Shown: positions 1 through 8,934 of the stretch, piece after piece | How the letters are laid out: each line of letters begins with the position of its first letter | Position numbering within the stretch: position 1 is the first letter of the stretch | Virus record (IMG/VR): IMGVR_UViG_2690316318_000016 | DNA length: 13,080 nucleotides | Strand: one strand, 5' to 3' | From: a virus | Taxonomy: Duplodnaviria > Heunggongvirae > Uroviricota > Caudoviricetes | Made by a program: the position numbers and the translations under genes | The notes under the pieces: generated by a model | Told to the model about the DNA's origin: nothing | Databases searched by the model: none | Seen by the model: the letters and a program-made list of their open reading frames with translations, nothing else

Positions 1-249
1 ATGCGCACACAGGTTGTATTGCAAAAATGGGGTAATAGCATTGCCCTTCGACTAACGGGAAACCTTAAAACCGTTCCGGGTTTTTCAGTGGGTGATATCG
101 TCAACGTTGAAATTAGTGAAAAGGGGCTTTTTGTAGAAAAGCCTGCACGCCGTCGCCTGAGTGAAGCCGAATTACTCGCCGGGATAACGCCAGTTACAGC
201 GCACGCGGACGAAATTGCCACCCCATTCAATGAGGAGGTTGATTACTGA
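1..249 (+). CDS. MazE/PemI-family antitoxin (AbrB/SpoVT-type DNA-binding domain), 82 aa
   Basis: ORF MRTQVVLQKWGNSIALRL... has the WGNS motif and size typical of MazE/ChpS/PemI antitoxins. Its stop overlaps the start of the downstream toxin gene (TGATG, 247-251). The ORF begins at the window edge, so no promoter is visible. Confidence 0.8.
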   Translation: MRTQVVLQKWGNSIALRLTGNLKTVPGFSVGDIVNVEISEKGLFVEKPARRRLSEAELLAGITPVTAHADEIATPFNEEVDY

Positions 250-593
250 TGTTTGTACCTAAGCGTGGTGATATTTGCTGGCTGGATTTTGAGCCGCAGA
301 AAGGAAAAGAGATCGGAAAGTATCGCCCGGCACTCATACTATCCCATGAGCAATATAACCGACTCACCGGGCTTGTCATATGCTGCCCCATAAGTACGAG
401 CATACGAAATGCTCCCACAGAAGTTCCGGTAACAAATCTGGACGCCCCCAGCGTGGTAGCAACCACTCTCATTCAAACCCTTGACTGGCGTCAGCGGAAA
501 GCGCGCTTAATCACAGAGGCAGAAGATGGGGTATTTAATGATGTGCTTGAAAGAGTCATTACCCTGATTGGTGGAGAGCATCTGCTTAAGTAA
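249..593 (+). CDS. MazF/PemK-family endoribonuclease toxin, 114 aa
   Basis: ORF MFVPKRGDICWLDFEPQKGKEIGKYRPALILS... resembles the MazF/ChpB/PemK N-terminus (RGD..W.DF.P..G.E....RPA..LS). Size and position directly after the antitoxin with a 1-nt stop/start overlap fit a type II TA pair. Confidence 0.85.
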   Translation: MFVPKRGDICWLDFEPQKGKEIGKYRPALILSHEQYNRLTGLVICCPISTSIRNAPTEVPVTNLDAPSVVATTLIQTLDWRQRKARLITEAEDGVFNDVLERVITLIGGEHLLK

Positions 594-636: not shown

Positions 637-1908
637 CTATTCTTTCCAGTCAATCCCATCCAGTAAGCACCCTGCCTCATATTTCCCCACCACCCAGTCA
701 AGGTTACAGGACTCATAGAACGCGAGGCGATTATACTGAGGCTCGTTTTTTACCAGGCCACGAACGGAACCACGCTGCCAGTACAGACACAGATTGGCAA
801 GAGGTGTGATCAATACAGCATTGTCCGGGAAAAATGGAACGGTTACAGCCGGGAGATTCCCCAGAACGGGATTTTTAATGATTTCCTCGTTAAGCAAAAT
901 TTCCTGATTCATCTGCGATGGATCAAGACGGTTTATCAAAGGCCATTGTTTACGGACCAGCGTATTGTGACTGCATACGGCCACAATGCCTTCCTGCCAC
1001 TGTTCATCAATCATGGATTGCCAGGCATCCAGAACGAGCGCATCTATCGTATGGTGTGTACCGCGTGTATTACTTTTCGGTGATGAAACAGAAAGGCCGC
1101 TGATAACCCTTCCCGCCGCTTCATTTCGAAACTTCTGCAACCAGCCCACGCCACAATCGTCACGCCCCGGATATGTTTTAGGGTCAGATTTGGCGGCATA
1201 ATGTGTGCCGTTAAAACCAATCTGAATTAAATCCAGCCATTTCCGGCGTTCAAAAGCGGCCCGCGCACTTCCTTCAAGGCCGTTTGCGGATGCGTGAGCA
1301 TCGGCATTGTCGTAGTTCAACGCAAAATCAAAATTAACCTGCTCGCAGCGGTAGCCCCTTGAAACCAGTGAATGCGCCTGTAGTGGCGAACGGCGCTCGT
1401 GAGGTGGCGATGTACGTGCCAACGGCCCCGAAGCGTCTACCAGCACAACCCGACCTGATATATCCGTAACAGGCACGGGAGTTATTTCAGCAAGGAAATT
1501 TGCCTGCCATCCACTGGCAAGCGTTGCACTCTGGCGAGGAACGGGTTCAACTTCTGACGAATAGCGCGCAGTGTCACCGGAAAAGTGCAAATCCTTCGGA
1601 TGTTTTCCGGTTATCGACTCGATAGCGCAATTGAAAACCATCTGAGCCTGTTGATTTCGTTGTGATACAACAGAATCAGCAGTGCAATTATAACGCTCAA
1701 TGCCGTCGTTATTACCCCCACCGCTTGCAGTATGCAGGGTGTGAAGCTCAAGCTCACGCTCCAGTTTTTGATATTCATTGTCCAGCGCGCGACGCGTCTC
1801 ATCGCTTATGCTTGCTGTGTTTGCTTTCAGGCGATTCCGGGACATTAATCCCCTGAGTCGGCTCACTATATCAGCGCCGTGCAAATGTGGAGTATTCAGA
1901 CCGCCCAT
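637..1908 (-). CDS. Hypothetical protein, 423 aa (start at Met48 of the 470-aa track ORF), unknown function
   Basis: Long open frame in GC-rich DNA. The ATG at 1906-1908 overlaps the TAA of the upstream 236-aa ORF (TAATG), suggesting translational coupling. No Walker A or other motif recognised. The track ORF's first 47 codons (1909-2049) overlap the upstream gene in another frame and are probably not translated. Confidence 0.6.
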   Translation of the reverse strand: MGGLNTPHLHGADIVSRLRGLMSRNRLKANTASISDETRRALDNEYQKLERELELHTLHTASGGGNNDGIERYNCTADSVVSQRNQQAQMVFNCAIESITGKHPKDLHFSGDTARYSSEVEPVPRQSATLASGWQANFLAEITPVPVTDISGRVVLVDASGPLARTSPPHERRSPLQAHSLVSRGYRCEQVNFDFALNYDNADAHASANGLEGSARAAFERRKWLDLIQIGFNGTHYAAKSDPKTYPGRDDCGVGWLQKFRNEAAGRVISGLSVSSPKSNTRGTHHTIDALVLDAWQSMIDEQWQEGIVAVCSHNTLVRKQWPLINRLDPSQMNQEILLNEEIIKNPVLGNLPAVTVPFFPDNAVLITPLANLCLYWQRGSVRGLVKNEPQYNRLAFYESCNLDWVVGKYEAGCLLDGIDWKE

Positions 1909-2618
1909 TACTGCCACCCCCGGCAGAGTTCTCTGCCCTCCGCAAGGTCGCGCATTTTTTCTGGATTCTGTCGCGCCGCGCTCCATTGTACAGGTGAAGG
2001 GGCGTTCCTGATTGCGCGGCTTACCGAATCCGGGAGTTTCTCCGGGCAATAACGCAGCGGGCTGGAGGTGTCGCTTTCGGTATCGTTAATCCGGCCGCGA
2101 ATCATCCCGACACTTTCAGCAGTATCTGTCGCTTTCAGTGTTTCGCATATTTTCTTTTCTGCGTTATACAGCGGCTGGCCAAGCAGCTCACATAAACCAC
2201 GAATCAATAACAGAGCAGGGGTCAGCTCGTTAATCAGTTCGGGAAGTGCTTTTGCAAATATCTCTGCCCGCAACTTATTATCAATGCTTTCGTAAGCACA
2301 ACCAGCCTCTGCCGCGTTATAACGACACTCCAGTAGCCTGATGCGCGCCTCATCATGCAGCACCCGCAGACGCTCAAGATTTTCTCGCGCCACACCCGCC
2401 TGAATGGATAATTTCGCGGAGGCTTCCGTTTTTACGCCCAGCGCAGACAGGATTGAGTTCTGCCAGTCACGATCGAGAGATTCCAGCTCCCCTTTCGTCT
2501 GTTCGATAGTTGCTTCCAGATTGGTGATTAATGATTCCTGTTCACTGAGTTTTGCCATGGCTGTATCAAACTGTGCTTTACATACCTGATGTTCGGCGCT
2601 TGCCTGAGTTATATCCAT
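1908..2618 (-). CDS. Hypothetical coiled-coil protein, 236 aa; possibly a Psu/Sid-like capsid-associated protein (weak, by context only)
   Basis: ORF MDITQASAEHQVCKAQFDTAMAKLSEQESLITNLEATIEQTKGELESL... is rich in E/L/A/K with a heptad-like pattern. It sits in a late-gene-like region near an Ogr/Delta-type activator. The Psu resemblance is from memory and unverified. The last ~45 residues are low-complexity, so a frameshift near 2050 cannot be excluded. Confidence 0.55.
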   Translation of the reverse strand: MDITQASAEHQVCKAQFDTAMAKLSEQESLITNLEATIEQTKGELESLDRDWQNSILSALGVKTEASAKLSIQAGVARENLERLRVLHDEARIRLLECRYNAAEAGCAYESIDNKLRAEIFAKALPELINELTPALLLIRGLCELLGQPLYNAEKKICETLKATDTAESVGMIRGRINDTESDTSSPLRYCPEKLPDSVSRAIRNAPSPVQWSAARQNPEKMRDLAEGRELCRGWQ

Positions 2619-2783
2619 TATTTGCTCCTGTAATACATTTTTTTACTTACGCCGATTTTTTCCATATTGCGTAATACATTCCAGCCGATTTTGTTCTCGT
2701 AATACGCTCACAATACTGTTGTATTACGCTTTCTTATATCGCGGGTGTTAAATCCCGGCATAAACAATCAGGGAGGCAACACG
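2619..2783. promoter_or_regulatory. Divergent intergenic region with direct repeats (GTAATACATT x2, GCCGATTTT x2) and an inverted repeat CGTAATAC-N15-GTATTACG (2698-2728)
   Basis: Repeats read directly from the sequence. The region separates the divergent 236-aa gene and the small RHH-like gene. A GGGAGG ribosome-binding site lies at 2771-2776, upstream of the ATG at 2784. Confidence 0.45.
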
Positions 2784-3017
2784 ATGAAAAAACAAAAGAA
2801 AATGCGATGCGTATTACGCTGTATTCGTATCCCGCACGAAATCGACCATAAAATAAATCAGATATGTCAGGACAGAGAGATGAACTACTCCCAGTGCGTC
2901 AGAATGTTTATCAGTCAGGGAATTAAGGCCGGGGAAAAGCAGGAAGAAGACTGCAACGGGCGCAATGTAGCGGGGGATGTGTGGGCCTGGGCAAATGACC
3001 AGAACCACACGACGTAA
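2784..3017 (+). CDS. Small putative ribbon-helix-helix-like DNA-binding protein, 77 aa
   Basis: ATG at 2784 is preceded by GGGAGG (the track ORF starts 13 codons earlier without a ribosome-binding site). MRCVLRCIRIP followed by two predicted helices fits a strand-helix-helix pattern. Function is not established. Confidence 0.5.
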   Translation: MKKQKKMRCVLRCIRIPHEIDHKINQICQDREMNYSQCVRMFISQGIKAGEKQEEDCNGRNVAGDVWAWANDQNHTT

Positions 3018-3067
3018 TACAGAAATAACGCAGCCGGTCACACTCGCTGGCTGTGTTATACAAATCA

Positions 3068-3250
3068 CTATGAAGTTTTCGACTTCCTGCGCTTAGTAAT
3101 GCGTACAAACGACTCAAGCGTACAAAAACAAGCCCCACACTCAATATTATTGCACTGGTAATACGTTCTGTAGATGTTTTGTTCGTGTTCTTCCAACGAA
3201 CGACCACGGGTGCGGGCTGAAGCGCCACAGGCCGGGCAAGGGAAAGACAT
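3068..3250 (-). CDS. ogr: Ogr/Delta-family zinc-finger late transcription activator, 60 aa
   Basis: ORF MSFPCPACGASARTRGRSLEEHEQNIYRTYYQCNNIECGACFCTLESF has the C-x2-C...(22)...C-x4-C spacing and YxQC motif characteristic of P2 Ogr / P4 Delta. Confidence 0.8.
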   Translation of the reverse strand: MSFPCPACGASARTRGRSLEEHEQNIYRTYYQCNNIECGACFCTLESFVRITKRRKSKTS

Positions 3251-3540
3251 ATCACGCTCCTCTTACTGGTGTGAAATTTAACCTATTATATCTTCTGCCG
3301 CCCCCTCTGGCTGTATCAAATAAACCCGCAGCAGTCGCCGCGTATTACGCACGGGCGCGCCGTTCCCATGCTCACTCGTCACATTCCCCGTATCAGTTCT
3401 CTCTTGCCGTAAGAACGGCTCTGGCTGGCGATAAAACTAACCCGGTCGGGGCATTCCCGCAGCCTTTAGCGAAAATGTAATTTACCCCCTGAAACGCGTG
3501 CTGTTCCCCCGTCACCTGCGCGCGAAAAACTCACCGTTTT

Positions 3541-3639
3541 TTGTGCACGCACGAAATCGCCCTCCGGGCGCGCCAGTACTGGGCCGGATGGGCAAAAAGT
3601 TACTCTAAAAAATTGTGCAAATTTGTGCACTTTTGTGCA
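3541..3639. promoter_or_regulatory. Array of TTGTGCA motifs (3541, 3613, 3623, 3633); the last three phased at exactly 10 bp and forming overlapping GTGCA/TGCAC palindromes
   Basis: Read directly: aTTGTGCAaaTTTGTGCActTTTGTGCAg. Ten-bp phasing puts the sites on one helix face, as in operator or iteron arrays. The region is GC-rich and noncoding-looking, between the ogr-like gene and the iteron cluster. Confidence 0.4.
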
Positions 3640-3865
3640 GATGAACAACAGCGTCAAAAAGAGTGCTTTTGAGAGATTTTTTATGGCAACTGCGCCGCGT
3701 GTATTACGTTTTTTACCATCCCCGCCGCGCATGTACATACTTCATTTTTCTGCCAAACAACAGGGCAACTCCCCGTGACTGACAGCCCCAAAAAAATCAA
3801 TGATTGATGTTGCATTTTTGTTAGAGGTCAGGCCAGTTGTTTTGGGGCTCTGCCTCATAATCCGG

Positions 3866-4184
3866 TGGGGGGTGCGCAAAGCGGTTACAACGGTTACAAC
3901 CCCAAAAAACACCACATAACAATATGATTTTAATGAATATTATTTGTAACCGCTTTGCGGTTACACTGCGGTTACAACGGTTACAGGTTTCAGAAAGTTA
4001 TTTATTATCAATCAGTTAAAAACTTAACTTGTAACCGCCTGTAACCTAACAAAACGGTTACATGTAACCGCGTTGTAACCGCTTTTGTAACTCATCGGAC
4101 CAGTTGTAATATGTTGATATATAATATAAAAATAAGTGATTTTAAATTTGTAACCGTTGTAACCGCTTTGCGCAACCCCCCCCG
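3866..4184. repeat. Iteron cluster: at least 13 copies of GGTTACA/TGTAACC (many extended to GCGGTTACA) in both orientations, AT-rich spacers, bounded by a perfect 26-bp inverted repeat (3874-3899 and 4148-4173); putative replication origin
   Basis: Repeats and the inverted repeat were checked base by base. A perfect 9-3-9 palindrome TGTAACCGC-ttt-GCGGTTACA lies at 3945-3965. The architecture (short iterons in both orientations plus an AT-rich stretch) parallels the P4 ori/crr bound by alpha protein, and it sits just downstream of the primase/helicase-integrase operon. Confidence 0.5.
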
Positions 4185-4381
4185 GACTTTAGCGCGACTC
4201 TTTAAAATGTTAATTAAACACACTTACTCTGTTTCACTCTCATTAACTCTCTGTAATTGAAATGTGCCTCGCCACTGCTTGACTCTTTCTGGTAATCAGG
4301 GGAGGGAGAGCAAAAAAATTGATGGCGACACCGCTGCAATATGGCCGCCATTGCATTGCTGTTACTGTTGGTTCTGGCCAA

Positions 4382-4437: not shown

Positions 4438-5439
4438 TTACTCTGCAGGCTCTTTTTGTCCGGTAAATACCATGTCGGCTACCGGGTTAAATCTCATGGC
4501 ATCTGCCAGATAGTCGGGAGAAAAATGCGCATAAGTCATCGTTTGCTGAATAGTGGCATGTCCCAGAATCCGTTGCAGGGTAACGATGTTTCCCCCGTTC
4601 ATCATGAAATGCGTGGCGAACGTATGACGCATCACATGAGTCGCCTGCCCTTTTGGCAAATCAGGCTTCACCTCCTGGAGGATCTCGCGAAACCGGAGAT
4701 AATCGACCTCGTACAGCGGCCCGGTTCGGCGGGTTTTAATCAGCGAGAGCACGGCATCAGACACCGGAACCGAACGGGACTTCCCGTTCTTGGTGTTGAA
4801 GAACGTCACGCGATTACCGACGATATGCTCTCCGCATAATTCCGCCGCCTCACCCCACCGCGCCCCCGTAGAAAGACACAGAATGGCGACACGACGCGCA
4901 TCACCTTCGAGTCGTTCAAGAAGCCGCTCAATCTCATCATCAGAAAGAAAGGCCATCTCTGTATTCTGAATTTTTAGCTTACGTATATTGCGCACGGGGT
5001 TCGGGTTGTGAAAGCTCCCTGCTTCAATCAACACCGTGAACATGGTAGACAGAACGCATAAATCACGATTAATACTGGACGGCATTAATCCGGCCTGTAA
5101 TTTCTCTGACCGATATTCAAGCATAAATTTTCGCGTCATCTGACTGGCGCGAGGATCTCTCATTTCACGAATCACTTTCTCCAGCCGGATCCTGTAGGTA
5201 TCGCCGTAAGCCTGATTGCGCCCGTCAAGCATCCACCATGTATCAAGCAACTCTGATAATCGCCGCCGATCAGCAGGTTTAGCCAGCCATGGGTTATTAT
5301 GGAAATTCTGCAAAACATATTGTTCGAACTTCTCTGCACTTCCTTTCCGGGCAAAAATTTTACGTATCCGTTTGCCGTATGCCCCTTGCGGCCTGATATC
5401 TAGCAACCATCTTCCATCATCCATCTTTCTGATCGACAT
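4438..5439 (-). CDS. int: Tyrosine recombinase, P2-type integrase family, about 333 aa
   Basis: C-terminal catalytic region LPKGQATHVMRHTFATHFMMNGGNIVTLQRILGHATIQQTMTYAHF (HxxR, GH and catalytic Y) and box I STGARWGEAAEL closely resemble P2 Int as recalled. Start chosen at the ATG at 5437-5439 (MSIRK...) because an AAGGAGA ribosome-binding site precedes it and it lies 2 nt after the primase stop; the track start at 5475 overlaps the primase. Confidence 0.9.
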   Translation of the reverse strand: MSIRKMDDGRWLLDIRPQGAYGKRIRKIFARKGSAEKFEQYVLQNFHNNPWLAKPADRRRLSELLDTWWMLDGRNQAYGDTYRIRLEKVIREMRDPRASQMTRKFMLEYRSEKLQAGLMPSSINRDLCVLSTMFTVLIEAGSFHNPNPVRNIRKLKIQNTEMAFLSDDEIERLLERLEGDARRVAILCLSTGARWGEAAELCGEHIVGNRVTFFNTKNGKSRSVPVSDAVLSLIKTRRTGPLYEVDYLRFREILQEVKPDLPKGQATHVMRHTFATHFMMNGGNIVTLQRILGHATIQQTMTYAHFSPDYLADAMRFNPVADMVFTGQKEPAE

Positions 5440-5441
5440 AC

Positions 5442-8111
5442 TTAAGGTCTCTCCTTGTAACTGAATATCCGGCATTTCAGCACTTCCGGCTCTCTGGCTT
5501 CGGCTACCCCTTTTCCGGCGTTTGCCTGTCTGGACACCTCACTACGAATTGTTTTACGACCTGTCAACGGTCGGGAGCGTCCAGCCCCGAGCAACTCAAT
5601 CATTTCGCGATCGGTTCGGATCTCCACGCGGTGAATGGCGGCTGCCTGTGCCAGTTGCGGAATACTGATAGCAATCCCTTCGCGGCATCCCTTGCCGTAG
5701 TGGTTTACACCGTATTTTGTTATGCCGTCCAGGAAGTCGAACGCCTCCCAGAATTCCACCACTTCCGGTAAATCAGCCGCCGCCGCTTTAACCTGCGCTG
5801 TTGCCATTTGTTCCAGTTCCAGACATGTGGCATCAAGCCATTCATCCGGGATATCGATAACGCATTTCAGCGCCCTGACCAGCGCGATAATTTGCGCGTG
5901 ATTTTTGGCGATACGGGGATGGCGAATATTTTCGCAGCCGCAAAGGCGTTCCGTTTCAGCTGGCGACACTTCCAGGAACGTTTGCATAATCGCCCGTTCC
6001 TGACTTACCGCCCGATGAATAAACCCCGATACCTTCTCGACGGGGTAGAGTTCCAGCCGTCTTGCCGCCAGTCGGGTATCAGGTGAATGGCGTTTTTTGT
6101 CGGTGTAGATGCGTATCAGGCGCTCAATAATTGCCGGAGAGGCGTTTACCCGCGCATTCTGCGCAATCACGATAGCGCCCTTAAAATCCGGGTCATAGGT
6201 GTTGTTATTGTTGGCTTTAACACCACGAACGCCGATACCACCGCCGTTATAGAGACTTTTCAGGTTATCGAAGTCAAACGCACCTCTTTTTTGCGCATTG
6301 TCTCCCCGGTCCGCTTCAATCAGAACAACAGGTAATCCGGCGACCTGTCCAAAGGTGCGCTTCCAGCCCGCCTCTGATCCTTTGGTTGGATCAACGCCTT
6401 CATAGTTGTCACGACCGCACAACCGCCAGCAAAAATCAATCAATGTTGATTTACCCGTTCCGGGTTCCCCGGTGACTTCAAGGAAGGGGAAGGATTCTTC
6501 TTTATCCCGGATTTGTTCGCTGAACAGGGAGCCCAACCAGAAAGCCAGGGTAATAATTCCCTTTTCACCAAAAGCCAGCCAGAGATCTTCCACCCAGGAC
6601 TCTGTAAACTCATCCGTTTTTTTGTAGTTAATCTGTAATGTGGGTTTTTCGCTTAATGGTTTTGCGTTTATGCCATCAATTTCAAAATAATCCTCATCAT
6701 TGATTTCATAAGTTTTACCCTTGTAAACGGCAATATCATTAAACAGCCATGCCCCAATTCCCTTGTTGTATCCGATAAAATCCTGACCAATAACCTCTTT
6801 TATTGCGGGAAGGTCATTTTTTATTAATGCGTCAAGCTGCGTAGTCGTTCCGGTATAAATACCACCTTTTGCCACGTGCAGCAGGCGTTTTTTAAATTCA
6901 GATGAGGATGTTAATTGTCCTGATGTAAAGGTGTTTTTCACCGTAGCACCATCCGGGAATGTAACGCGGAAGTAATACCATGCTTCATCCGTGTCATTGT
7001 TTCGAATGTAATAAAGCGGCACTGGGTTACAGTTTGCGATTTCTTTTACAGCGCCGGATTCCTTAAGTGCAATTTTTCGCGCTTCATCTTCGTCAACACT
7101 TCGCTCATTAATGACACGTTCAACAGCCTTCATATAGCGCTCAATATCCAGCTTGAACCAGAAAACACGGTTATCAAAGGTAAAATAAAACTCCTTCCGC
7201 TCACGAAAGGAAAATATTATCAGCGCCTTATCTCTCGGCGATTTCGCCAGCAATAAATCACCGTAATAACGGTATCTTTTCACATCATGGCCACGCAGCT
7301 TTCCGGCGATGTGTAAATCATTCCAGTCGCGTTTATTGTTGTTTTTACCTGGCAACGCCGCTGCCGTTCTCCAGCCGTCTTCGGCGCTGCGTTCTGCATG
7401 TTTTTTCGCGTAACGTTCACCCGCACGCCCGTTATCCAGGGCCCACACAATAACCGGACGGGGATTATCCCCGCACAGCTTCGCCAGCTCTTCCAGCGCC
7501 TTATCAGGGTAGTTCACGGCAGACATGACAGAAACGGCCGCAATGCCATTCTGGTTAAGGCTGATGGCATCAAAGATGCCCTCACAAATCCAGATTTCTT
7601 TGGCCTTGCTTAAATCTGCTCCCGGATAAGCCCACCACAACCCCTTGTAGCTGCCGGAAAAATTCGCCTTGCGCGCGAAGCGTCCCGGTCGGTCTATGAT
7701 GCGCTCCCACCACACGCCGTCAGCCAGCGTAAAACGCACAGTAGCGGCCTGTTCGCCGCTTTCCTTGTCCTGGTATCGCTCCTGAGTAAATGCGCCCTTC
7801 AGTGGCCCCACAGCAATATTGCGCGCTTCCTGAAGATAAGCTGCCGCCGCTGCATATGGCTCATCTTTCGTGCTGATATAACGATCTGACCATGATGAAA
7901 ACACATCCGGGTAAAGTTCTTTGGTCAGCAGGTCTGTACCGCATTTATTTTCGCGCCCACAGTGTACGATGTACGGCTTCTCAAGACTGGTAAACAGTTC
8001 TTTCTTTCCACATTGCGGACAAACACCATAGCGAAGATAGTTATTTTCTTCTTTAAAGTTGTAATCACGGATAAGACGGTTAATAATCTCTTTTCTGGTG
8101 TTATTTTTCAT
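5442..8111 (-). CDS. P4 alpha-like DNA primase/helicase (zinc ribbon + TOPRIM-type primase + P-loop NTPase), about 889 aa
   Basis: N-terminal zinc-binding motif CPQCGKK...HCGRENKCG; TOPRIM-like WICEGIFDAISL; Walker A TGEPGTGKST and Walker B VVLIEAD. Start placed at the ATG at 8109-8111 (MKNNTRK...); the track's GTG start at 8132 would translate the poly-C tract. Confidence 0.9.
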   Translation of the reverse strand: MKNNTRKEIINRLIRDYNFKEENNYLRYGVCPQCGKKELFTSLEKPYIVHCGRENKCGTDLLTKELYPDVFSSWSDRYISTKDEPYAAAAAYLQEARNIAVGPLKGAFTQERYQDKESGEQAATVRFTLADGVWWERIIDRPGRFARKANFSGSYKGLWWAYPGADLSKAKEIWICEGIFDAISLNQNGIAAVSVMSAVNYPDKALEELAKLCGDNPRPVIVWALDNGRAGERYAKKHAERSAEDGWRTAAALPGKNNNKRDWNDLHIAGKLRGHDVKRYRYYGDLLLAKSPRDKALIIFSFRERKEFYFTFDNRVFWFKLDIERYMKAVERVINERSVDEDEARKIALKESGAVKEIANCNPVPLYYIRNNDTDEAWYYFRVTFPDGATVKNTFTSGQLTSSSEFKKRLLHVAKGGIYTGTTTQLDALIKNDLPAIKEVIGQDFIGYNKGIGAWLFNDIAVYKGKTYEINDEDYFEIDGINAKPLSEKPTLQINYKKTDEFTESWVEDLWLAFGEKGIITLAFWLGSLFSEQIRDKEESFPFLEVTGEPGTGKSTLIDFCWRLCGRDNYEGVDPTKGSEAGWKRTFGQVAGLPVVLIEADRGDNAQKRGAFDFDNLKSLYNGGGIGVRGVKANNNNTYDPDFKGAIVIAQNARVNASPAIIERLIRIYTDKKRHSPDTRLAARRLELYPVEKVSGFIHRAVSQERAIMQTFLEVSPAETERLCGCENIRHPRIAKNHAQIIALVRALKCVIDIPDEWLDATCLELEQMATAQVKAAAADLPEVVEFWEAFDFLDGITKYGVNHYGKGCREGIAISIPQLAQAAAIHRVEIRTDREMIELLGAGRSRPLTGRKTIRSEVSRQANAGKGVAEAREPEVLKCRIFSYKERP

Positions 8112-8119
8112 ATATAAAT

Positions 8120-8159
8120 CCCCCCCCCCCACTGCACCTTTTGCAGTGGGGTTTTTATT
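8120..8159. promoter_or_regulatory. 11-nt homopolymeric C tract (8120-8130) plus a 10-bp GC-rich stem-loop (CCCCACTGCA-ccttt-TGCAGTGGGG, 8127-8151) followed by TTTTTATT, just upstream of the primase start
   Basis: Read directly. On the plus strand it looks like an intrinsic terminator. On the minus-strand mRNA the hairpin and G-run sit 8 nt upstream of the primase AUG, where a G-run could act as the Shine-Dalgarno. Confidence 0.45.
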
Positions 8160-8530: not shown

Positions 8531-8749
8531 TCAGGCGGAAAGCTGCGTAACCTTCAACGCCCTGAAATGTGTCATTCCCAGCTCTTCCAGCCCTTCGGCT
8601 GCGCGGCGTATGGCTTCGCCCGGCCCCGTTCCGTATACCGTTGCGTGTGCATGTTTGGTTAACCCGCGCTTATTAACGGCATAACCCAACACAAAGAAAC
8701 ATTTTTCACCACTGCCATTATTTTTACGGGATGTTGAACGGGTTTTCAT
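8531..8749 (-). CDS. Hypothetical small protein, 72 aa
   Basis: ATG overlaps the stop of the upstream ORF (ATGA, 8746-8749); AGGTGA ribosome-binding site upstream. Confidence 0.5.
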   Translation of the reverse strand: MKTRSTSRKNNGSGEKCFFVLGYAVNKRGLTKHAHATVYGTGPGEAIRRAAEGLEELGMTHFRALKVTQLSA

Positions 8750-8934
8750 TTCTTCACCTTTACCACTGATGCTGTGAGTTCTTCTTCTGGTAATTTATAT
8801 TTCGGCGCAATTTCTTCCGTATACCTGATAGCGTCCCTTGCCGCTTTTCCTTTTGATTTATATTTATATGTGGTGCGGTAGTTTTCTTCCTCTCCTGTTA
8901 CCACATTACGCAATTTAATATGAATCTCGTACAT
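8746..8934 (-). CDS. Hypothetical small protein, 62 aa (MYEIHIKL...)
   Basis: Start at the internal ATG at 8934 with a strong GGAGGGG ribosome-binding site, 2 nt after the upstream stop; the longer track start lacks a ribosome-binding site. Confidence 0.55.
   Translation of the reverse strand: MYEIHIKLRNVVTGEEENYRTTYKYKSKGKAARDAIRYTEEIAPKYKLPEEELTASVVKVKK

Follow-up and report, generated by a model that had tools for sequence, protein, structure and literature searches.

The P2-dependent satellite P4 has two separated cis regions, ori and crr, and the sequence of its type I iteron, TGTTCACC (reverse complement GGTGAACA), is similar to GGTNACA. The domain order of the P4 alpha protein (primase, helicase, C-terminal) has been described (PMC2777425). 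The GenBank record of phage phiCTX contains so-called R3 repeats, for which no function is given, together with two annotated IHF (integration host factor) binding sites. Here we analyze a cluster of GGTTACA repeats in a stretch of viral DNA of 13,080 bp (IMG/VR virus record IMGVR_UViG_2690316318_000016; the whole stretch is called the window below), which represents a ~12.4-kb phage satellite island inserted between hpt and gcd in an Escherichia genome. Judged from comparative sequence analysis, the cluster is probably the vegetative replication origin (oriV) of this satellite, used by the primase-helicase that the island itself encodes.

The cluster lies far beyond chance. GGTTACA and its complement TGTAACC occur 16 times in the window, as compared to 1.18 expected from dinucleotide-preserving shuffles, none of which (0/200) reached 16 and the maximum of which was not above 5. 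The 8-mer CGGTTACA is found 13 times against 0.26 expected, with 12 of these copies in the cluster. An initial annotation of the window, made from the letters alone, had listed at least 13 heptamers in both orientations, a 9-3-9 palindrome, perfect 26-bp inverted repeats flanked by G/C runs, AT-rich stretches and a neighboring tyrosine recombinase gene, and this anatomy was borne out with some extensions. Thirteen exact copies are confined to 3883-4164 and are joined by a degenerate 14th iteron, GAGTTACA; the perfect palindrome reads TGTAACCGC-TTT-GCGGTTACA (3945-3965); and the perfectly complementary 26-nt arms (3874-3899 and 4148-4173) form the core of a terminal inverted repeat of 39 nt that is 95% complementary, has 248 nt between its arms and includes the G-run and the C-run. 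The outer box within this repeat, GCGCAAAGC in the window, is CGGAAA(A)G in most relatives. The recombinase gene (4438-5475) is indeed adjacent to the cluster, on the minus strand.

Four blocks of iterons, the third of which contains a head-to-head pair (GGTTACATGTAACC), are separated by three AT-rich spacers in a window of 46% GC, and each spacer holds one match to the IHF consensus WATCAANNNNTTR, these being consensus matches only (Table 1). The ATGATT core of the site in spacer 1 is invariant among the satellites and phage ESSI2_ev239, and the site in spacer 2 aligns with one annotated as IHF binding in the phiCTX record. The central spacer is a candidate unwinding or bending center. Since the left-hand iterons mostly point one way and the right-hand iterons mostly the opposite way, the whole 326 bp constitutes a quasi-palindrome.

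Table 1. Coordinates of the repeat module, its parts and selected genes in the window.
Feature	Position	Strand	Remarks
Whole origin-like module	3861..4186	.	326 bp, quasi-palindromic; colinear with modules in 11 other lineages
Left terminal inverted repeat	3861..3899	+	G-run, outer box GCGCAAAGC, two tandem iterons at 9-bp spacing
Iterons 1-2	3883..3898	+	CGGTTACAA twice, starts 3883 and 3892
AT-rich spacer 1	3900..3943	.	25% GC; IHF-like site AATCATATTGTTA at 3917-3929, minus strand
Iteron block 2	3944..3985	.	3945-3951 (minus); 3959-3965, 3970-3976, 3979-3985 (plus); holds the 9-3-9 palindrome
Central AT-rich spacer 2	3986..4028	.	23% GC; IHF consensus match TATCAATCAGTTA at 4006-4018, plus strand
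Iteron block 3	4029..4092	.	4030, 4040 (minus), 4056 (plus), 4063, 4074 (minus), degenerate 4086-4092 (minus)
AT-rich spacer 3	4093..4147	.	22% GC; IHF-like site TATCAACATATTA at 4107-4119, minus strand
Right terminal inverted repeat	4148..4186	-	mirror of the left repeat
Iterons 13-14	4149..4164	-	tandem, 9-bp spacing
P2-type tyrosine integrase	4438..5439	-	between primase gene and cluster, start overlaps primase stop; PDB 5c6k (P2 Int) 7e-93
phiCTX-type primase-helicase, proposed initiator	5442..8132	-	889-896 amino acids; Pfam Toprim_2 6.6e-13; phrog_1139 2.7e-298
MazEF module	1..593	+	after the capsid gene

The region is present in 64-66 of 5,426 complete E. coli genomes and is always chromosomal, the cluster occupying 86 places in 64 genomes. 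Seven copies that were sampled represent two sequence types, 75% identical over the region; the GGTTACA cores never vary among these seven, in contrast to the spacers and to the bases beside the cores, and selection acts on the repeats rather than on the spacers. Changes in one arm of the inverted repeat are matched in the other, so that GCGCAAAGCGG in the window is replaced by GCGGAAACGGG in strain NCTC9082, mirrored in both arms. The cluster was intact in every integrated island sampled, each element carried a single cluster, and every locus examined had it beside a primase gene; in the two-copy genome that was cross-checked, STEC308, the second place also carries a primase gene.

With the region as DNA query no match was obtained in phage and plasmid DNA, and the homology to ESSI2_ev239 emerged only from k-mer and architecture scans. 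A colinear module of ~300 bp with the same layout was found in 12 lineages, all of which encode a homologous primase-helicase. When aligned, the modules measure 296-326 bp, contain 57-69% AT and keep their iterons in colinear positions; at both ends, in inverted orientation, there is a terminal box (T)CGGAAA(A)G with two tandem iterons, and a central ATCAAT....TTA site is conserved. The iteron consensus is GGTNACA in most lineages, with a core GTNAC common to all, and the variants seen are GGTTACA, GGTCACA, GGTTACT, CGTTACA, CGTTACT, CRTCACA, GGTAACA and GGTAATY. Phages of Pseudomonas, Stenotrophomonas, Ralstonia, Vibrio and enterobacteria carry members of this GTNAC family. The initial annotation had suggested an origin of novel specificity; the iteron does differ from that of P4, but it is one variant of a family and not a unique specificity.

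Individual modules illustrate the design (related loci are referred to by L numbers). ESSI2_ev239 has a quasi-palindrome of 290 bp (L009:14378-14664) with CGTCACA/CATCACA iterons, located ~1.4 kb beyond attP, which aligns iteron by iteron with the window cluster and shares its spacer motifs; the attP of this phage is a separate site with TGTGGAC arm sites of its own. In phiCTX the module coincides with the R3 repeats and the annotated IHF sites, and contains GGTAATT 8 times. Smp131 has AGGTAAC 9 times and a near-perfect terminal inverted repeat of 36 nt, and RSY1 has GGTAAC 5 times at the genome start. A P2-like prophage of Providencia, a Vibrio element and a further satellite exhibit the iterons CGTTACA, CGTTACT and GGTTACT in modules that lie just after the primase gene, or after primase plus int. 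The sister satellite L014, whose Int and primase are 92% and 91% identical to those of the window, has GGTCACA at essentially every iteron position. P2, on the other hand, has homologous packaging and head genes and replicates by the gpA-type rolling-circle mode, and no such cluster was found anywhere in P2, including beside cos. The IMG/VR loci L104-L113 (primase 37-43% identical) showed no cluster within 5 kb, but their flanks may be too short, and this negative is no evidence of absence because phage modules lie 4-5 kb off.

Two further observations were made in these records. In Providencia L119 (10760-11560) a complete CGTTACA module is located between two partial GGTTACA/TGTAACC modules, an arrangement that looks like what is left of a tandem array of origins that differed in specificity. 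At its right end, the ESSI2_ev239 record (L009:15120-15204) carries CTGTCTCTTATACACATCTCCGAGCCCACGAGAC and a poly-A tail; we take CTGTCTCTTATACACATCTCCGAGCCCACGAGAC to be Nextera adapter sequence, which would make it a contaminant in the deposited sequence.

In the primase-helicase encoded by the island, a Zn-ribbon/Toprim primase at the N-terminus is followed by a P-loop helicase and by a C-terminal domain of ~200 residues, for which a structure model was obtained with a pLDDT (predicted local distance difference test) of 92.8. The start codon used by its homologues is probably the one at 8111 (MKNNTRK). The protein is 40-51% identical over the full length to the primases of phiCTX, RSY1, Smp131, Dobby and ESSI2_ev239, all of them Peduoviridae phages without the rolling-circle initiator of P2, and the primases of the module-bearing phages, the Providencia prophage and the Vibrio element range from 37 to 55% identity. 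Such proteins are abundant; among 8,000 candidates scored, at least 1,127 homologues at E <= 1e-10 were found, originating from phages and satellites of Enterobacterales, Vibrio, Pseudomonas, Ralstonia and Stenotrophomonas. The full-length protein served as query, as the C-terminal domain alone gave 9 partial proteins.

The module directly follows the primase gene in L004, L117, L118, L119 and L120. Among these, L117 (Salmonella, primase 60% identical) and L118 (Pectobacterium, 54%) have no second integrase, and in both the primase stop codon is directly followed by the module. E. coli Eco_24-2013 has the cluster between the primase and int genes and not beyond int. Because the module accompanies the primase in 12 lineages, with or without Int, the cluster belongs with the primase and not with the integrase. 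Three features expected of an iteron origin are present: the repeats are conserved as sequence (14 copies, GGTTACA invariant with spacers at 75% identity), AT-rich DNA is adjacent (22-25% GC against 46%), and there is linkage to the presumed initiator gene in 12 lineages, with no module in P2, which uses gpA.

A comparison of the window with L014 bears on which part of the primase would contact the iterons. The two proteins are 96% identical in residues 1-300 (primase part) and 95% in residues 301-690 (middle and helicase), as compared to 79% in residues 691-805 (helical C-terminal region) and 68% in residues 806-889 (last domain). The divergence sits where an origin-binding domain would be expected and coincides with the T-to-C change in the iterons, which is suggestive. 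It is not proof, since the C-terminal domain is the most variable part in all comparisons. When the lineages were aligned, no clean rule of covariation emerged between single C-terminal residues and base 4 of the iteron.

The best reading of the cluster is an origin of the iteron type that would be assisted by IHF, would probably be bidirectional and would be bound by the C-terminal domain of the primase. The initial annotation had likewise proposed a P4-like origin bound by this domain; the origin part is favored by a module that travels with the primase in 12 lineages, and the parallel to P4 holds in function only. The region would support replication in the following manner. After induction, the island's own primase-helicase would recognize the 14 GGTTACA iterons via its C-terminal domain, which we infer to be the iteron-binding domain. 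IHF, presumably acting at the cluster, would bend the three AT-rich spacers and bring the inverted iteron sets and terminal boxes together. The AT-rich DNA would then melt, and the two mirror halves would load two helicase rings in opposite directions. Finally, the Toprim domain of the same protein would prime synthesis, leading to bidirectional theta replication.

Several observations weigh against this origin reading. The C-terminal domain is the fastest-evolving part of the primase in every comparison, whether the iteron is the same or not, and in L116, which shares the iteron of the window, it is 52% identical against 81% elsewhere in the protein. The primase gene and the module are not adjacent in phiCTX, Smp131 and ESSI2_ev239, where 4-5 kb separate them. 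A literature search for the origin of phiCTX-type replicons yielded no paper that defines it, although earlier suggestions may exist. In addition, the module is close to cos: ~170-350 bp away in phiCTX, Smp131 and RSY1, ~470 bp from the record end in ESSI2_ev239, if that end is the cos end, and ~350 bp from a cos-like 19-mer in the window that several satellites have kept. Lambda cosB likewise combines repeats with IHF sites, and the cluster could be a packaging accessory site of that kind, where the small terminase subunit of the helper and IHF would bind beside cos. Position alone cannot fully separate a packaging role from a replication role. We nevertheless consider the packaging explanation unlikely. 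P2 shares the terminase, portal and capsid genes but has no such cluster, which should be present in phages with the same terminase/cos system if it were cosB-like. The satellites have no terminase gene, yet the iterons of sister elements differ (GGTTACA versus GGTCACA) in step with the C-terminal domain of the primase. Packaging is directional whereas the module is mirror-symmetric, and in L117, L118 and L119 it abuts the primase stop codon. Furthermore, a 55-bp cos region conserved in P2-related phages has already been reported in the Smp131 paper as required for packaging (PMC3931495). In view of the proximity to cos in four phages, the module may still have a minor role in packaging.

The integrase gene next to the cluster raises the question of whether the repeats are an attP-like array of arm sites for this P2-type Int, as the initial annotation had also considered; such an array would serve a second integration or the resolution of multimers. 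The enzyme is a genuine member of the P2 family, 85% identical to the Int of a P2-like prophage, with the catalytic R, K, HxxR, H and Y residues seen by eye in the translation; the attP of ESSI2_ev239 follows the same grammar (a head-to-head pair, tandem 7-mers at 9 bp and an inverted tandem pair ~130 bp on); three divergent Int alleles beside GGTTACA clusters keep the motif DGRWL[LV]D within the first 28 residues, in the arm-binding strand; and the Int of the GGTCACA element has DGRWMLD. However, the same module is found in L117 and L118, which have no second Int at all, and in ESSI2_ev239, phiCTX and Smp131 it exists alongside a separate attP with repeats of its own. With the window Int as query the integrases of phiCTX, Smp131 and RSY1 were not detected, and other repeats are present at their attP. 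The N-terminal motif does not track the iteron either, as the Yersinia satellite L116 combines GGTTACA iterons with the canonical P2 motif DGRYEVD, and L121 has CGRFNVD beside GGTTACT. In L004 Int is on the other side of the cluster. Clusters up to 99% identical, with primases 95-98% identical, adjoin an Int allele only 54% identical, so there is no core site that follows the catalytic and core-binding domains. Int is no constant partner of the module, and the module showed no sign of use as an attachment site. GGTTACA matches neither of the published P2-type arm consensus sequences, tgTGGaCa and tgccGCCActt (PMC3448106). In view of the satellites without Int, the separate attP sites and the Int motif of L116, we regard Int arm sites as very improbable as the main role. 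A narrower idea, weakened by the same data, may still hold: the Int inserted between rep and ori in one sub-lineage might in addition recruit the origin iterons as arm sites, for example to resolve multimers before packaging of monomeric circles. The initial annotation had raised another role for the recombinase, namely that it flips the cluster as an invertible, phase-variable promoter segment, and 39-nt inverted repeats 248 bp apart beside such a gene, with weak promoter-like hexamers inside, would be in line with this. A fimS-type switch should occur in both orientations among genomes, but a synthetic query with the 3900-4147 segment inverted matched 0 of the 5,426 E. coli genomes at >=80% coverage, as compared to 64 for the native order (the 20 listed as a single piece at 100%), and there is consequently no sign of inversion in these assemblies. 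Relative to the primase gene, the segment points the same way in all sampled relatives, and elements in which no recombinase adjoins nevertheless keep the inverted repeats; we therefore give a switch hardly any credence. Equally little speaks for a miniature inverted-repeat transposable element (MITE)-like insertion, or for a hairpin acting as single-stranded DNA or RNA. Long terminal inverted repeats would fit either, a single strand folds at -87 kcal/mol (z-score -14.5), and the arms covary as noted above. Yet any long inverted repeat gives a strong z-score, and no Rfam match was found for the cluster. The invariant parts are the 7-mers and not the pairing, and the sequence of the terminal box has been kept from Vibrio to Escherichia, which argues for recognition by a protein rather than for structure. 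Dispersed copies were never seen, the single cluster always belonging to a primase-bearing element, and there was no empty site and thus no presence/absence polymorphism among the relatives.

Apart from the cluster, the island has the following composition. Its chromosomal flanks are ~93% identical to E. coli, and members of this satellite family occupy different sites, beside tRNA genes, in further E. coli strains. On the minus strand, a tyrosine integrase at the gcd end is followed by an AlpA-like excisionase/regulator, an Icd-like protein and small open reading frames, and then by the primase-helicase, the P2-type integrase, the repeat cluster, an Ogr/Delta zinc-finger activator, a 236-residue protein and a P2-family major capsid protein. 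This gene order is that of a phage satellite. The slot at the hpt end, occupied by MazE/MazF in the window, harbors Hok/Gef or YefM/YoeB in other family members and looks like a variable cargo or addiction slot.

A P2-type int gene between primase and origin characterizes one satellite sub-lineage that already has a different integrase at the island end; besides the window it includes L002, L006, L094-L098, L004, L116 and L121. The body of this Int has been exchanged (alleles 52-54% identical), and the first ~28 codons are similar in three alleles. In the Yersinia locus the primary integrase gene at the island end is immediately followed by an exact tandem pair of the P2 arm-type motif TGTGGAC with 11-bp spacing (L116:3729-3746). 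The P2-type int gene lies far away from this pair, which hints that the second Int might act at the island's own attachment region.

The satellites carry a P2-family major capsid gene of their own (window 637-2618, minus strand; L011:8708-10646; L012:8940-10829), and the protein in the window has an N-terminal extension of ~130-170 residues. Directly upstream, at the position of the gpO scaffold gene, a protein of 236-290 residues without any family match is encoded, and the pair of genes is found in different places in different satellites. P4 is not known to encode a capsid protein, and a capsid protein encoded by the satellite may represent a different way of redirecting capsid size. A second motif, GTAATAC (mostly CGTAATAC/GTATTACG), occurs 11 times in the window against 1.1 expected, with 9 copies in both orientations at 2630-3707, from upstream of the 236-residue protein gene through ogr/delta. 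It recurs in the related satellites L001, L003, L005, L006, L094, L097, L102 and L103, and the late (capsid) operon may have its operator or activator sites here.

The cos-like 19-mer mentioned above, GGTGACGGGGGAACAGCAC (3498-3516, minus strand), shares 14 of its 19 positions with P2 cos, which makes it a candidate for the cos site of the satellite; a search with the P2 19-mer at <=3 mismatches gave no match. Its first 14 nt, GGTGACGGGGGAAC, are exact in several satellites (L001:9804, L003:4656, L094:7776, L121:8872), and in the window it falls inside a doubtful 90-residue open reading frame (3466-3738). TTGTGCA is found three times at 10-bp spacing (3613, 3623, 3633) and once at 3541, a count that is not significant. 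Similar GTGCA(C/A) repeats are seen at a comparable distance beyond the module in ESSI2_ev239 (L009:14760-14830) and in L121 (~8740-8790), and these repeats may be terminase or regulator sites.

Taken together, the module could be the previously undefined origin of a whole class of replicons, i.e. the Peduoviridae with a primase-helicase in place of gpA and their satellites, with switches in iteron and C-terminal domain serving as a code of incompatibility or escape, but this joint proposal is tentative and, in our judgment, rather doubtful. If it were true, helpers and satellites would have an origin of common design and would part from each other when a single base is switched in every iteron simultaneously (GGTTACA, GGTCACA, GGTTACT, CRTCACA), with corresponding changes in the C-terminal domain of the primase, and the code would decide whether the initiators of helper and satellite fire each other's origins. 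The value would lie in a recognizable origin module for a large class of phage and satellite replicons, which would open replication to direct tests by means of minimal replicons and by swapping either origins or specificities (T to C at iteron base 4). The annotation of replication modules could improve, inverted repeats beside a second integrase would no longer be mistaken for a switch, cross-talk between satellite and helper at the level of replication would become open to study, and the engineering of transducing particles of the P2/P4 type could draw on a compact, portable ori/rep pair.

Compared with known systems, the module resembles a P2-family attP, which likewise has inverted sets of tandem 7-8-mers, spaced at 9-11 bp, on either side of an IHF site and a P2-type int beside it, but the module has 14 sites in the window as opposed to 4-6, and another consensus. 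The Staphylococcus aureus pathogenicity islands (SaPI) and other phage-inducible chromosomal islands (PICI) are functionally similar, in that pri-rep is followed by an ori of iterons flanking an AT-rich region; they differ in that their proteins belong to another family, while here primase and helicase are fused in one Toprim protein, and terminal inverted repeats, IHF sites, Gram-negative hosts and P2-family helpers are involved. Like P4, the island is a P2-dependent satellite whose single initiator joins a DnaG/Toprim-type primase to a P-loop helicase and to a presumed DNA-binding region at the C-terminus, and the targets of this initiator would by analogy be short iterons that face both ways beside AT-rich DNA. 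Unlike P4, the iteron is GGTTACA and not TGTTCACC, the 13-kb window has a single GGTTACA cluster and no second region resembling crr, and no sequence match was found between the primase and the winged-helix origin-binding domain of P4 alpha (PDB 1ka8). Judging from these features, the system would work functionally like P4 ori/alpha but does not belong to the P4 family. The closest counterpart is the module of R3 repeats in phiCTX, where the iteron is GGTAATY, the primase gene is 4.4 kb away from the module and cosR is 170 bp away. Its design is homologous, as it extends over ~300 bp and aligns position by position with the module in the window, including the central IHF site, the inverted tandem iteron pairs at 9-bp spacing at each end and the inner groups, and it is accompanied by a primase with 41% identity.

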